From positions 1 to 64,000 of the IMG/VR virus record IMGVR_UViG_3300030419_006277: 64,000 nucleotides of DNA, one strand, 5' to 3'. The DNA comes from an uncultured virus (IMG/VR IMGVR_UViG_3300030419_006277). Taxonomy: Duplodnaviria; Heunggongvirae; Uroviricota; Caudoviricetes. The notes under the pieces were generated by a model. It was not told the DNA's origin and did not search any database. It saw only the letters and a program-made list of their open reading frames with translations. Shown piece by piece: positions 1,164 through 48,463 of this stretch (its first letter is position 1; every line of letters begins with the position of its first letter). The translations under genes and the position numbers were made by a program.

Positions 1164-1210
1164 AGGGGTACCCCTAAAAACGAAAGTAAAATGGGCAAAA
1201 CGAAAGTAAA
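1164..1210. repeat. 12-bp palindrome AGGGGTACCCCT followed by direct repeat AAAACGAAAGTAAA x2 (20-bp period)
   Basis: Palindrome 1164-1175; repeats 1177-1190 and 1197-1210; intergenic. Confidence 0.75.
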
Positions 1211-1411
1211 TTAGAACGAATCATGAGTCCACGCAAAAGGCGGGTCAATTAAACATTCATGCATGTGATCTAGATCTTTATAGATTTCACTGAGTTGTTC
1301 AATTATTTCTTCTGTACCTTTTAGATTGCTCAGATGTTTTTGAACTTCGAGTATGCCGTCTTTAGCGTCGATAAGACTTCGGCATTCCATAGTTCCAGGT
1401 TCGTAGGGCAT
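1211..1411 (-). CDS. Hypothetical protein
   Basis: ORF in tightly packed leftward operon. Confidence 0.6.
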   Translation of the reverse strand: MPYEPGTMECRSLIDAKDGILEVQKHLSNLKGTEEIIEQLSEIYKDLDHMHECLIDPPFAWTHDSF

Positions 1412-5602: not shown

Positions 5603-5830
5603 TTAATAAGGTGATTGAAAGTGGATTTCCCAGTCGGTCATATTTTCCCAAGGGGCAATGAAAGTTCTATTAGCTTCTTCACCAGTTGAAATAAATAAAA
5701 TTACGTTCAATTGATGAAGGGCCAAATTAATTTCAAAACCCAGGATTCTAAATTCACCACCTTCAGGTGTTGTGACGATTGCGCCTTTGAGATAATCAAT
5801 CCCAAATGATGAGTGAGGACTAAATTTCAT
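5603..5830 (-). CDS. Hypothetical protein
   Basis: ORF with ATGA overlap. Confidence 0.6.
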   Translation of the reverse strand: MKFSPHSSFGIDYLKGAIVTTPEGGEFRILGFEINLALHQLNVILFISTGEEANRTFIAPWENMTDWEIHFQSPY

Positions 5831-6300
5831 TTGATTTTTGGTCCTGAGAAAACGACAGAAGTTTTAGTGCGTAGGTGTGTTGCTTCTTCATGCCTAATTT
5901 CCTTATTCATGAGGTCTTTTAGATCCTTAGCAGCCCTTTGATGTGCTTCTCTTAGACCTTCAGTCATTACTGAATATTTATATTCTTTAGTTTGTCGAAT
6001 AGAAAACTTCATCTCTTCATCACTACTTTCTATGTAGCAGTCGGAAGGCTTTTCTACCTCTTCTAGTAGAACTAATAGTCTCTGTTTGAAATCAAGTCTG
6101 ATTTCCTCTTTCCGATCTGATAATAGTTTTTCTTGCTCAAGGATTGTTTGATATTCTCCAAAAAGTGCATCTTGTTCTTTAACTGGGTCAATCTCTACAG
6201 GTCTCCCAGTTAAATTTTTGATGAAAGCCTTGGAGTCAGGCTCACGTGCTGGAGAGTGGATGGATGGTGTTTTAGTTGTGCGTGGCATAGTTTTAACCAA
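5827..6300 (-). CDS. Hypothetical coiled-coil protein
   Basis: 157-aa ORF in operon. Confidence 0.65.
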   Translation of the reverse strand: MVKTMPRTTKTPSIHSPAREPDSKAFIKNLTGRPVEIDPVKEQDALFGEYQTILEQEKLLSDRKEEIRLDFKQRLLVLLEEVEKPSDCYIESSDEEMKFSIRQTKEYKYSVMTEGLREAHQRAAKDLKDLMNKEIRHEEATHLRTKTSVVFSGPKIK

Positions 6301-6565
6301 AATCGGAGTGGTAGTGGCGGCGTGTGCGAGCAGGATTAAATCCTGTTTTCTCTTCCACTATATCTGGTGATTCAAGTTGAGGAGAAGAGGGAAGTAACAA
6401 ACCGTAAGAATAAATATTTTCGACGGTTAATTCGATGTCCCATGTCTCACAAATTCTCTTTAGTAAGTCATTGGCATTAGCTCTCTCATAGAGATTTTCA
6501 CTGCTGTTAGCAGCTTCTACAATCTTCTTGAGTTTTGCTTTTAGTTGTGGGGTTGGAGTACTCAT
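6293..6565 (-). CDS. Hypothetical protein
   Basis: ORF starting 20 nt after array B hairpin. Confidence 0.6.
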   Translation of the reverse strand: MSTPTPQLKAKLKKIVEAANSSENLYERANANDLLKRICETWDIELTVENIYSYGLLLPSSPQLESPDIVEEKTGFNPARTRRHYHSDFG

Positions 6566-6584
6566 GATTCAGAAGAATGTTGAA

Positions 6585-6723
6585 GGTAGTTCTTAACCGT
6601 GGAGCTACCAAGCGTGTTGGGGTGAGCCGAAAGGCATAGAATCGGATTGAATTAAGATGCACAGCGACAAGCCAAGAAGAATCGAATTGAATAGGACTTA
6701 CACCAAAGGATGCCTATTCAATT
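6585..6723 (-). ncRNA. Candidate guide RNA B: 5' hairpin, 17 pentamer units (YNY-NN, mostly YTC/YTT), conserved CCCAACACGCTT and 3' hairpin
   Basis: 5-nt periodicity 6612-6696; 3' stem-loop GGTAGCTC-CACGGTTAA-GAACTACC; 11-bp inverted repeat 6685-6695/6713-6723; homologous to 7894-8021. Confidence 0.8.
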
Positions 6724-7231
6724 ACATATCAGGTGGATTTATCTTTGGTACCTCCCCACCATCTCTTTTAAGTTTTAATACCTGCTTCCTTGCCCCATCA
6801 GCAGCCGAGGCTATGAAGGCATGTCTCGCTTGATTGGTTTCAAGTTGAGTTTTCTCATAACCACTTAGATTGTCTTTGTCCACGCGAGTGAACATGTATT
6901 TAGTGTTCTTTCTATGAGATTTAAGACCTGAATAAGCACGTTGATTTAGATATTCAAGTGCCTCTCCGTCTGTTAATACATAGAGGTTACCTTTAATCTG
7001 TTTAATGACTAATGGCTTGTTAATTAATTCTCTAGCTTCTTGAAGCCATTCTCTAACTCTTATGAGTTTGAAATTAACAGCCTGACTCGACTCTGGTGAC
7101 ATGACATCTGCTTTTTTAAATAAGATGTCGAACATTTCTTCGACTTTATGAGAAGGGATAGTTTCACCCTTCTGTAAATCACGCCATGCAATGCCAGCAA
7201 TTTGGATTGGATAATCGTTTGGATTGATCAT
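6722..7231 (-). CDS. Uncharacterised partner protein of the RAMP gene
   Basis: 169 aa; ATGA overlap with the RAMP gene; lies between the two arrays. Confidence 0.75.
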   Translation of the reverse strand: MINPNDYPIQIAGIAWRDLQKGETIPSHKVEEMFDILFKKADVMSPESSQAVNFKLIRVREWLQEARELINKPLVIKQIKGNLYVLTDGEALEYLNQRAYSGLKSHRKNTKYMFTRVDKDNLSGYEKTQLETNQARHAFIASAADGARKQVLKLKRDGGEVPKINPPDM

Positions 7232-7866
7232 GAATCTACCTCCTCAATTTGTGTTACAGCAAAGCGTCCGTGGCTAGGTCTCCAAGTACCTAGACCTTCC
7301 GACTTCCCTGCCATGTTGGCGATCTTCCTCAGTTGACTTGGCTCCATGATTTCATCATCAAGCATTAATTCAAATTTGGCTTTCCACTCTGGGAAGTAAA
7401 CACGATTAACCCATACACCCCTACTGGTGAAGGCAGCGAGCGCAAGTTTAGGTGACTTGGAGTTGATCATTTCGATAGCATCTTTTGGCCCGTCATAATC
7501 AATCTCTGGGTTGTTTGTAACGACTACAGAACGCAGTACATCTTTACCTAATTTCCATTTAGTAGCTGCATTGCGTAAGCAGCGTTGGAAGTTAGCTCCT
7601 GGCAGGTAAGGAGTATCAAAGCCAACAAAGTCGACGCGGTTGTCGCCTTCATCAACTTCACAGACTCCTTCATTCTTCCAATAGCAGGAGTAGAGCCAGT
7701 CAAGGATGCGAACTGCTCTGTGTACATCATCAGTCTTAGCTTTACCCTTCTTATCAGTGAAGTGCTGCTTTTGCTTAGCCGCTTCACCTAGAGGGTCGCT
7801 GTACTGGACGTTGGAGAGAAGCAGACCGCCTCTTCCTTCGAGGTGGACTTCAAAGTTTCTAAACAT
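7228..7866 (-). CDS. Stand-alone RAMP-superfamily (Cas7/Csm3-like; Vipr-like) RNA-binding protein
   Basis: N-terminal strand FEVHLEGRGGLLLSN; PYLPGANFQRCLRNAA resembles the Cas7-group P.IPGSS.KG.LR motif; R.YFPEW; C-terminal G-rich loop GLGTWRPSHGRF. Confidence 0.8.
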   Translation of the reverse strand: MFRNFEVHLEGRGGLLLSNVQYSDPLGEAAKQKQHFTDKKGKAKTDDVHRAVRILDWLYSCYWKNEGVCEVDEGDNRVDFVGFDTPYLPGANFQRCLRNAATKWKLGKDVLRSVVVTNNPEIDYDGPKDAIEMINSKSPKLALAAFTSRGVWVNRVYFPEWKAKFELMLDDEIMEPSQLRKIANMAGKSEGLGTWRPSHGRFAVTQIEEVDS

Positions 7867-7893
7867 GGTGGTGGTTTTGGTGTGGTGTGTGGT

Positions 7894-8021
7894 TCAGTTC
7901 TTAACCGAGGAACTGATAAGCGTGTTGGGCTGAGTTGATCTGAGGTGAATTGAGAAGAGCCGATCCGTATAGAAGCGAAAGGAACTGAGTTGCAGCAGTT
8001 TTAAGTCATACTCAGGACTAT
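7894..8021 (-). ncRNA. Candidate guide RNA A: structured 5' leader, 15 pentamer units (HNC-NN, mostly YTC), conserved CCCAACACGCTT and 3' hairpin
   Basis: 5-nt periodicity 7920-7994 with C at triplet position 3 in all 15 units; 3' stem-loop TCAGTTC-CTCGGTTAA-GAACTGA. Confidence 0.8.
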
Positions 8022-8032
8022 TTTTGGTGTAG

Positions 8033-8290
8033 TCATGGCACTAATCCCTTTTTATCGAGATAATTAAGTAAGACTTGAGCAGCCTCTCCTGGTGGCCCAG
8101 GTTCTGTAGCTTCTGCCATAATTGCAAAGATGATCTTAGGATCTTTTCTAACTTGTTCTTCAACTATGGGGAAAGATATTTTGAAAATATTGTCATAGAT
8201 AGCGCGAGCATTCTCCATGTCCCCACGTTTAACACATGCCTCAGCTTCTTTGCGGCATACATCTAGGAAGTCAGCGTTAAGATCTTCCAT
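8033..8290 (-). CDS. Hypothetical protein
   Basis: ORF with TAATG coupling. Confidence 0.6.
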   Translation of the reverse strand: MEDLNADFLDVCRKEAEACVKRGDMENARAIYDNIFKISFPIVEEQVRKDPKIIFAIMAEATEPGPPGEAAQVLLNYLDKKGLVP

Positions 8291-47659: not shown

Positions 47660-48463
47660 TTAGATTAGACTCCAACTTCTCCACCACTTGGTTATTACAT
47701 ACTTATTATTTTGCACTGGTGGCAATGCTTCATGCATTGTTTTATAGTTTGGGACTCCGTTACGATATAAGTTATTCCAGGCTAACAACATACCTTCTTT
47801 CGGTTTTACTTTTAACTTAAGGTGTTTGAAATAGGTTTCACCACCTTCCTCTACGTCGTTTAAGTAGATCATACTTGTCCAAGTTCTTTGTCCCATCCAT
47901 TCGCAATAAGTTTTACATTCTTTAATTGCTAAAGGTGGGAAAAAATCATAATGTTCTTTGTAAAATTCTCCAGGTAAATACTTTTGCGCTTGCATAACTT
48001 CTCCGAGAAATGGGCGCAAGTCCAGTATGTCTGCAAGTTTTCTGTCTACATCTAAGTAAAAAGGATTGTCAAAATAGTGCAAGTCAGCGGTTGAGCTGGT
48101 TCGATAATCTGAGACATGGCACGTATCATTAGTATCTGAAACTGTAGATTTTCTTAGATTCTTATCTATAATCTCTCGTAATTTTTCACATTCTTCTTTA
48201 GTTAGAAAATTATCATATGAGTAAAGCTGAGTAAAAGGATAATATATTCTTTTCGCATCAGGATTTTTTGTTATTGCATTGTTATAAAACTCTTTATATT
48301 TGATTCTTTTTGGCGAAGGTTTAAAAGCGCATAATTCTATTAATTGATTAATATCACTATCTTCAAGTTTATAAAGTTCTTTGAATGTTCTAATTGTTTG
48401 TGTTTTACTTACGCCGCCTACTGCGGCTCTCATGAATTCTAAAGCAACATTACTATCTATCAT
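47660..48463 (-). CDS. Prolyl 4-hydroxylase-like 2OG-Fe(II) oxygenase
   Basis: RTSS; Y.PG.FYKEHYD; QRTWT.MIYLNDVEEGGET.F; HEALP...KY..TKW. Confidence 0.9.
   Translation of the reverse strand: MIDSNVALEFMRAAVGGVSKTQTIRTFKELYKLEDSDINQLIELCAFKPSPKRIKYKEFYNNAITKNPDAKRIYYPFTQLYSYDNFLTKEECEKLREIIDKNLRKSTVSDTNDTCHVSDYRTSSTADLHYFDNPFYLDVDRKLADILDLRPFLGEVMQAQKYLPGEFYKEHYDFFPPLAIKECKTYCEWMGQRTWTSMIYLNDVEEGGETYFKHLKLKVKPKEGMLLAWNNLYRNGVPNYKTMHEALPPVQNNKYVITKWWRSWSLI

Follow-up and report, generated by a model that had tools for sequence, protein, structure and literature searches.

Analysis of a short pyrimidine-rich tract in the genome of an S-EIV1-like marine cyanophage revealed that the tract, referred to here as array B, is very probably the programmable repeat tract of a VIPR guide RNA (vrRNA) aimed at the integrase gene of a podovirus. 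The window analyzed covers positions 1–64,000 of a virus record 87,026 bp in length. As described in the accessible text of the preprints (PMC13142463; 10.64898/2026.04.26.720927; 10.64898/2026.10.15.759431), a vrRNA consists of 9–16 tandem pentamers, each with a conserved GGY triplet and a hypervariable NN dinucleotide, followed by an invariable structured 3′ tail; one Vipr protomer is bound per repeat, and the NN dinucleotides pair with target DNA such that every third target base is skipped. VIPR loci contain vipr and an accessory vap gene, and that of SUSP1 has one vrRNA upstream and an array downstream, according to the same texts. By most of its defining features the element described here is a VIPR vrRNA, the GGY motif being the sole defining feature that it lacks. 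The original prediction, that the tract is the second of two guides in which fixed scaffold triplets alternate with an NN code, is supported by the neighboring Vipr homologue, the conservation pattern among relatives and a target match, each of which is presented below.

The repeat tract of vrRNA B (6612..6696, minus strand) lies in a 156-nt gap between the minus-strand ORFs 6722–7231 and 6293–6565 and contains 17 YNY-NN units, of which units 2–14 match the integrase target and units 16–17 form the junction with the tail. The 85-nt string originally reported was recovered as an exact match, reading from 6696 to 6612 on the minus strand, and the predicted run of 17 pentamers with pyrimidines at triplet positions 1 and 3 is present. 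It is the longest YNY-NN run of the window, with runners-up of 10 and 9 units, and also the longest across the entire 87-kb genome; in 50 mononucleotide shuffles of the window the maxima ranged from 7 to 11 units. At triplet position 3, 14 units have C and 3 have T, exactly as had been counted. Although the run of 17 units stood, not all of them are guide: unit 1 lies in the conserved leader hairpin and the last two units, CCC-AA and CAC-GC, belong to a conserved tail junction common to array A, leaving approximately 13–15 guide units. Similarly, the range originally given for the array, 6585–6723, proved to span the leader hairpin, the repeat tract and the tail hairpin P1 rather than the tract alone. 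With 13–15 guide units in B and 13 in array A, both tracts fall within the 9–16 tandem pentamers of a vrRNA, each with a conserved triplet and hypervariable NN positions. Rfam searches of the whole window at gathering thresholds found no family, with two weak matches to eukaryotic families near the locus; tRNA and tmRNA searches found none, and blastn of positions 5800–7900 against a phage collection gave no match.

The original prediction had placed a RAMP partner gene beside the array, and the product of the ORF at 7228–7866 (minus strand; 212 aa) is indeed a small RAMP/Cas7-like protein homologous to Vipr, as indicated by phmmer, BLASTP, AlphaFold2 (AF2) and Foldseek. In a phmmer search of the PDB, its sole sequence match was 36pp_D, "SUSP1 Vipr protein" (E 1.7e-10, query residues 88–207), and BLASTP aligned it to the Vipr of Felixounavirus wV8 with 27% identity over 210 aa (E 6e-20); it was also assigned to phrog_4652 (PHROG). 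The AF2 model, built on 29 clade members, reached a pLDDT of 88.9, and Foldseek ranked the Cas7-family proteins Csm3, Cmr4, Csf2 and type VII Cas7 at the top (E 1.6e-5, TM 0.46–0.49, probability 1.00). The G-loop GTWRP aligns to GDWRP of SUSP1 Vipr, and the SUSP1 residues R138, W178 and R179 are retained as R155, W195 and R196; these three residues and T194 are invariant in the 29-sequence clade alignment. In contrast to these retained positions, alignments to SUSP1 and wV8 Vipr show different residues at both positions that read G1 in SUSP1 (H17 replaced by S18 and D177 by T194), as well as changes at the SUSP1 residues E71, M72 and C173 of the Y3 pocket. Judging from these alignments, we infer that the substitutions could be the cause of the altered triplet described below.

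The locus has the order vrRNA A, vipr, a gene encoding a 169-aa protein and vrRNA B, all on one strand, and thus consists of a minimal pair of vipr and vap-slot genes with long flanking intergenic regions in a phage genome. Array A (7920..7994, minus strand) occupies the gap upstream of the ORF at 7228–7866 and is composed of 13 guide units and 2 conserved junction units, with C at triplet position 3 in 15/15 units. Its guide NN series (AA AG CT GC TA GG GG TT AA AC AG AA AG), compared with that of B, bore out the statement that the two series are unlike each other except in the last two units. The gene for the 169-aa protein (6722..7231, minus strand) was assigned to the vap slot from its position and its 4-nt overlap with vipr. 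None of its 18 homologues is named, no Pfam or PHROG family scored above cut-off (Pfam YqeC fell below it), BLASTP detected no similarity to the gene that occupies this slot in wV8, and its Atlas matches were to hypothetical viral clusters only; its AF2 model (pLDDT 55) was too low in confidence for use. In wV8, which served as a positive control, GGT-NN runs followed by a tail were recovered in the gaps flanking vipr, on the vipr strand. The closest isolate to this phage is Synechococcus phage S-EIVl, with 53% identity in a 751-aa virion protein.

Comparison of the locus with its relatives separated fixed from variable positions within the pentamer. From 128 matching metagenome stretches, 22 loci were confirmed, ten of which encode a Vipr 88–100% identical to that of the window and form clade 1; clade 2 comprises 11 viral contigs with a 72–74% identical Vipr (14 stretches matched, 11 confirmed) together with metagenome loci at approximately 72% identity. 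Close relatives share the tail of the window and have a single upstream vrRNA together with one to at least five downstream vrRNAs (one in the window, two in locus L109 and four in L108). The 32 tails found yielded 29 distinct arrays, and composition was determined, without filtering, from the ten units before the junction of each distinct array, giving 28 bodies of 50 nt each (280 units) from the window and the ten clade 1 loci. Triplet position 1 was C in 52% and T in 38% of the units (Y 90%, G 1%; 0.62 bits), position 2 was T in 70% and G in 20% (0.72 bits), and position 3 was C in 85% and T in 11% (Y 96%; 1.26 bits), whereas the two N positions were near-random, with 0.07 bits at pentamer position 4 and 0.05 bits at position 5. 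This positional composition establishes that the fixed triplet is Y-U/G-C(U), abbreviated YUC, rather than the published GGY; G makes up only 1% of position 1, and the pyrimidine at position 3 is all that the two motifs share. For some VIPR types, the text of PMC13142463 allows GGY "or a related consensus". The 36 arrays of the 72% clade have a looser triplet of the same shape, with a pyrimidine at position 3 in 95% of units, T or G at position 2 in 85% and 0.05–0.09 bits at the NN positions. The comparison of related phages that had been proposed therefore revealed conserved triplets alongside near-random dinucleotides, and equal variation at both was not seen.

Guides also differed as whole blocks. 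Phages with a 97% identical Vipr contained wholly different guides between conserved leaders and tails, as in the upstream vrRNAs of the window, L109 and L110. In the reverse situation, eight pairs of shared guides (88 unit comparisons) showed 8, 19, 8, 5 and 7 differences at pentamer positions 1 to 5, respectively, and five guide pairs with identical NN nevertheless had 13 triplet changes; because only pairs with at least 0.7 NN identity were chosen, the difference counts are biased and serve as illustration only.

The two vrRNAs of the window end in a common structured tail. The tail of vrRNA A (7893..7929, minus strand) contains the junction CCCAACACGCUU and a hairpin, P1 (UCAGU/ACUGA), with the conserved loop UCCUCGGUUAAGA, and that of vrRNA B (6585..6621, minus strand) contains the same junction and a P1 of different sequence (GGUAG/CUACC) with the loop UCCACGGUUAAGA. 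When the B gap was used to search the genome at the DNA level, one partial second copy was returned, at 7896–7934, which is the 3′ end of array A. The A and B tails share a 39-nt module with 85% identity, the only direct repeat within 6400–8200, in which CCCAACACGCTT is followed by the hairpin with compensatory stem changes between A and B and the conserved loop TCCNCGGTTAAGA. Across the window and its relatives, P1 occurs with 19 distinct arm combinations; base pairs 3, 4 and 5 are paired in 19/19 of these and pair 2 in 17/19. In internal vrRNAs of relatives, another hairpin, P2, precedes the following vrRNA, and three of its pairs covary, so that the shared tail, with covariation in both P1 and P2, corresponds to the invariable 3′ tail of conserved secondary structure found in VIPR. 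P2 is absent from vrRNA B of the window and likewise from the last vrRNA of L109; its absence at B is explained by P2 being an inter-vrRNA hairpin and B being the last vrRNA before the next gene.

The tails of the two clades differ in their higher-order pairing. In the 72% clade, 63/63 distinct versions allow the P1 loop to pair with the linker immediately 3′ of it (at least 5 bp, compared to 41% of shuffles); many of these loop/linker helices covary, which indicates a pseudoknot like that of SUSP1. In the clade of the window, a simple test confined to unbulged helices of at least 5 bp found such pairing in 0/23. The 14-base tail core matched 93 stretches of the viral contig collection, but the 25 with the strongest C periodicity lacked a junction or array and were thus regarded as chance matches, and a fuzzy search allowing up to 8 substitutions found no tail in the 11 loci at 72% identity because the tail of that clade differs.

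At its 5′ end, array B is preceded by a hairpin (6685..6723, minus strand) with an 11-bp stem and a 17-nt loop. The perfect 11-bp inverted repeat that had been described (6685–6695/6713–6723) was confirmed by repeat search and by folding, and is the sole one of at least 11 nt within 6400–8200; its 5′ arm begins at the second base of the stop codon of the upstream gene and its 3′ arm overlaps repeat units 1–3. The hairpin folds with −12.3 kcal/mol (z −4.5), and 0/200 shuffles were as stable. Alignment of 12 leaders drawn from the two clades showed the loop core T.GGC.TCCT.TGGTGTAA to be invariant, with the stem occurring in compensated variants (AATAGG/CCTATT, ATTAGG/CCTAAT and GTTAGG/CCTGAC). 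The 5′ hairpin of B is thus a conserved array leader. The leader of array A (7995..8032, minus strand) is conserved in the close relatives L109, L110 and L129 but forms only a weak hairpin (−6.2 kcal/mol, z −0.6, with 50/200 shuffles as stable), such that the original claim for both arrays is borne out only in part. The leader hairpin could mask the first units, as was originally proposed, but could also mark a processing site or protect the 5′ end; the main text of PMC13142463 makes no mention of a hairpin, leader, processing or stem-loop.

A gapped scan of the viral contig collection with units 3–11 of B, that is, 18 fixed bases under the 1-nt-skip rule, which is experimentally demonstrated for GGY-type systems only, matched exactly one contig. 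The chance expectation for this pattern is approximately 0.4 matches, estimated from the 93 matches of the 14-base pattern. When the match was extended beyond the 18 required bases, 8/8 bases of units 2 and 12–14 also matched, an outcome with a chance probability of approximately 1.5e-5, and units 1 and 15 each matched at one base. The match thus amounts to 26/26 bases over 13 consecutive units (2–14) and 28/30 over 15 units. The site lies in a 450-aa ORF and is in frame with it, the NN dinucleotides falling on codon positions 1–2 and the skipped base on position 3, the wobble position; a skipped base at the codon wobble position is also reported for natural VIPR targets. Among 100 shuffled B guides scanned against the target record, the maximum was 0.73, compared to 0.93 observed. 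When 26 guides were tested against this record, only one besides B exceeded its own null maximum: the homologous guide L115:664, from the upstream position of a locus with 88% identical Vipr, matched the same site at 24/30 (null maximum 0.70). The exact 10-unit pattern of that guide gave 0 matches.

The ORF containing the site appears to encode a divergent tyrosine integrase, a reading based on weak profile scores and a match at 24% identity. It matched phrog_1, "integrase", with E 6.7e-4 and the annotated integrase of cyanophage P-SS2 with 24% identity over 97% of its length (E 3e-19), and motifs resembling box I and box II are visible by eye; sequence searches of Pfam, NCBIfam and the PDB gave no match. 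The target record is 19.7 kb long and classed as a provirus. It encodes a T7-type terminase (TerL) that shares 83% identity with its counterparts in S-CBP3, P-SSP2 and NATL1A-7, as well as a T7 tail-fibre N-domain, an internal virion protein and a DNA ligase. The same DNA is present in a 78.9-kb contig of a Prochlorococcus single-cell genome (100% identity over 4,052 nt), in which two host-type genes (CGLD27-like and asparaginase II) and a tRNA-Met gene precede the integrase gene. The gapped search of phage and host DNA that had been proposed for array B therefore yielded a 26/26-base, in-frame site in another phage, and the NN series of B matches the DNA of a competing element with a 1-nt skip at wobble positions. 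The site is known from the one viral record and its copy in the Prochlorococcus contig.

Scans of the phage's own genome with both guides, allowing skips of 0–2, reached at best 19/26 and 19/30, within the range of shuffled guides, in agreement with the earlier statement that the target lies outside the window. Cross-targeting of 26 guides against 201 kb of related loci produced 6 matches of at least 80%, compared to 2 for shuffled guides, all with short guides. A separate scan with units 7–15 of B matched two contigs, which were rejected as chance matches for lack of extension. For array A, two 9-unit scans gave one match each at 21/30, without extension and at chance level; no match was found in the Prochlorococcus genome, and a search tolerating up to 3 mismatches gave matches in 0/401 genomes of the host's family.

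Several other explanations for array B were weighed against these data. Because its triplet is not GGY and is looser still in the 72% clade, and because the register is broken in 3/29 arrays of relatives, the locus could be a decaying or orphaned VIPR system in which the arrays are relics, their triplets having drifted from GGY and ceased to function with the protein. We consider this very unlikely, since the Y-K-C pattern is common to 28 arrays with a pyrimidine at position 3 in 96% of units, all 29 sequences have the same Vipr G-loop, G193-T194-W195-R196-P197, guides turn over while tails stay fixed, and an in-frame target with every base of units 2–14 matched exists; the triplet changes in homologous guides with identical NN, although from pairs selected on that identity, point the same way. 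It is also improbable, if slightly less so, that array B is a functional vrRNA whose integrase match is coincidental or whose action is on RNA, its true target lying outside the databases. A single record with the site and incomplete collections would be consistent with coincidence, and SUSP1 VIPR also pairs with single-stranded RNA in vitro, as stated in the text of 10.64898/2026.04.26.720927. However, coincidence would have to account for the perfect extension beyond the 18 required bases, for the fit to the wobble register, for the independent homologous guide that matches the same site and for the parallel with recombinase targeting by SUSP1.

Location alone would fit a cis-acting mRNA or DNA element, such as a pyrimidine-rich translational leader, a nut/rut-like site or the operator of a multimeric protein, as exemplified by TRAP, which binds GAG repeats: array B is intergenic and G-poor, occupies the gene strand shortly before the next start codon and is flanked by hairpins. 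This explanation is nonetheless extremely unlikely given that the adjacent gene encodes a Vipr homologue, that relatives have up to six tandem copies without intervening genes, that the near-random NN series is swapped wholesale between near-identical phages and that the guide has a gapped match in foreign DNA. On the minus strand, a scan of the two gaps detected neither a sigma-70-like promoter nor a terminator. The nut/rut-like antitermination site, a TRAP-like operator, a promoter, iterons and a pac site had all been entertained as candidates and were dropped once the Vipr match was found. The best reading remains that a rival temperate podovirus resident in the shared host is the target, with vrRNA B expected to direct Vipr to its integrase gene.

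The locus resembles VIPR type II of SUSP1 and of a Pseudomonas fulva prophage in having a two-gene operon with vrRNAs upstream and downstream on the same strand. It also resembles SUSP1-type VIPR in its fixed-triplet pentamers and conserved 3′ tail, with 13–15 guide units here compared to 9–16 in the published text, and in a target, read with a 1-nt skip on wobble positions, that belongs to a recombinase of a competing mobile element; SUSP1 VIPR silences the excision recombinase of a satellite, according to the text of 10.64898/2026.10.15.759431. In contrast to SUSP1-type VIPR, the triplet is Y-U/G-C instead of G-G-Y, the G1-reading residues are replaced, the array is preceded by a conserved leader hairpin and the host of this copy is a marine cyanophage. 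In addition, the SUSP1 tail has a pseudoknot, whereas in the window's clade the tail forms a hairpin whose 13-nt loop is conserved, without a pseudoknot by the simple helix test, and the second gene is unrelated by BLASTP to its counterpart in wV8. The searched texts of the VIPR preprints contain no mention of cyanophages.

Non-GGY arrays of period 5 beside Vipr-like folds have been described with a genomic language model, as 21 clusters, with GAC, CAC, WGT and TGH as named examples, in the text of 10.64898/2026.10.21.760802, and the arrays reported here resemble these in their period, the Vipr-like fold and the non-GGY triplet. YUC or YKC (TTC, YTC, CTC) is not among the motifs named in that text, although its Fig. 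S10 may already show the motif, and its accessible passages report no targets for these non-GGY variants. More distantly, Csm3, Cmr4, Csf2 and type VII Cas7 share with this Vipr the RAMP fold, a G-rich loop and one protomer per fixed guide step. The class 1 CRISPR backbone, however, has a 6-nt step of which 5 are read, compared to a 5-nt step of which 2 are read here, and unlike class 1 CRISPR-Cas loci the window locus lacks CRISPR repeats within 6400–8200, with no Cas families or further cas genes recognized among the 12 neighboring ORFs scanned. Since VIPR was already published in 2026 preprints, the YUC copy is new as a variant and not as a system; what is new here is the YUC scaffold, the changed G1 pocket, the unrelated accessory protein, the leader hairpin, the cyanophage host and the natural target, although the motif or clade may already stand in published figures or tables.

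We propose that, by analogy with SUSP1, the intergenic region gives rise to a transcript of gene-strand sense and that Vipr (7228–7866) should coat the resulting vrRNA, its protomers polymerizing along the RNA with one for each pentamer. Each pair of protomers would sequester the fixed triplet and present the NN dinucleotide, and the filament would then bind double-stranded DNA, reading NN-x-NN-x and so on, and silence it. Array B would be aimed at the integrase codons N-D-L-G-V-C-I-N-N-D-Y-L-G of a T7-like cyanopodovirus that sits integrated beside tRNA-Met in the genome of Prochlorococcus. Its likely purpose would be to disable a resident rival when the phage infects a lysogen, for example by blocking the integrase and hence excision. 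Tentatively, S-EIV1-like marine cyanophages may thus possess a distinct VIPR subtype, with a YUC scaffold, replaced G1 residues, its own accessory protein and a leader hairpin, that silences the integrase of temperate T7-like podoviruses in Prochlorococcus; this broader proposal is one that we hold with somewhat less than even confidence.

In the 2026 preprints, as far as their texts extend, experimental characterization of VIPR concerns GGY-type guides of enterobacterial and Pseudomonas phages only. The YUC locus therefore offers a handle on whether the 1-nt-skip code holds beyond GGY, and its pyrimidine-only scaffold together with the changed G1 pocket constitutes a natural experiment on the co-evolution of protein and scaffold. 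Callers that assume GG[CT]NN, as given in the text of 10.64898/2026.10.15.759431, would miss the YUC family. These results extend VIPR to the abundant marine cyanophages and predict a concrete conflict, between an S-EIV1-like phage and an integrated T7-like podovirus in Prochlorococcus. Prochlorococcus has long been regarded as a host without prophages. If true, the predicted conflict would link RNA-guided warfare between phages to Prochlorococcus in the open ocean.

The predicted target of vrRNA B, the downstream guide RNA of the window, lies in an integrase gene of a T7-like cyanopodovirus, which was found in a 19.7-kb provirus-classed record (L133:1-19726) and in a genome_contigs record containing the same DNA (L136:1-3333). 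The latter is a contig of 78.9 kb, and its title names a single-cell genome of Prochlorococcus; in it, host genes (CGLD27-like and asparaginase II) and a tRNA-Met gene are followed directly by the cyanopodovirus, which starts with a divergent integrase gene and two small HTH-like ORFs. Its terminase showed 83% identity to those of S-CBP3, P-SSP2 and NATL1A-7, and its other genes included those for a tail fibre, an internal virion protein and a ligase. This T7-like cyanopodovirus within a Prochlorococcus contig looks like an integrated podovirus, of which there are few reports for Prochlorococcus.

Analysis of consecutive vrRNAs revealed a second hairpin between them, P2 (alignment A3, comprising L108:1410-1489 plus 19 further internal tails), with the covarying sequence CAACUA.../...UGGUUG, followed by GGGA and the U-rich beginning of the next vrRNA unit. 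The last vrRNA of an array lacks a following P2, and the hairpin may be a processing signal between vrRNAs. Three arrays (L108:1416, L112:1900 and L113:3681) lost the pentamer register a few units 5' of the tail, which may reflect indels or fused arrays; these were excluded from the filtered pentamer count and included in the unfiltered one. The clade with 72% identical Vipr (L096-L106 and L117-L128) has a different tail, with a UCGU...ACGA hairpin, and a looser fixed triplet (H-K-Y). In its tail, pairing of the P1 loop with the linker 3' of it forms a pseudoknot that is well supported (63/63 versions).

Elsewhere in the window, a 10-unit YNY-NN run (1176-1225, minus strand) lies in a T-rich gap before the ORF at 636-1154 and is probably due to chance, because it lacks the tail motif and its length is also attained by shuffled sequences. 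That ORF (minus strand, phrog_81) and another at 47660-48463 (minus strand, phrog_61) encode 2OG-Fe(II) oxygenases, a type of auxiliary gene frequent in cyanophages. A 51-aa GTG ORF (6507-6662, minus strand), which spans the tail of vrRNA B and extends into the gene that follows, is most likely spurious.

Finally, whereas the window has one downstream vrRNA, phages with 93-97% identical Vipr (L108, L109, L110 and L112) have from two to at least five, counted 3' of the vap-slot gene. In addition, one guide occurs both upstream, at L115:664, and downstream, as vrRNA B of the window. Together, the varying number and the alternative positions of the same guide indicate that vrRNA guide cassettes are gained, lost and relocated.
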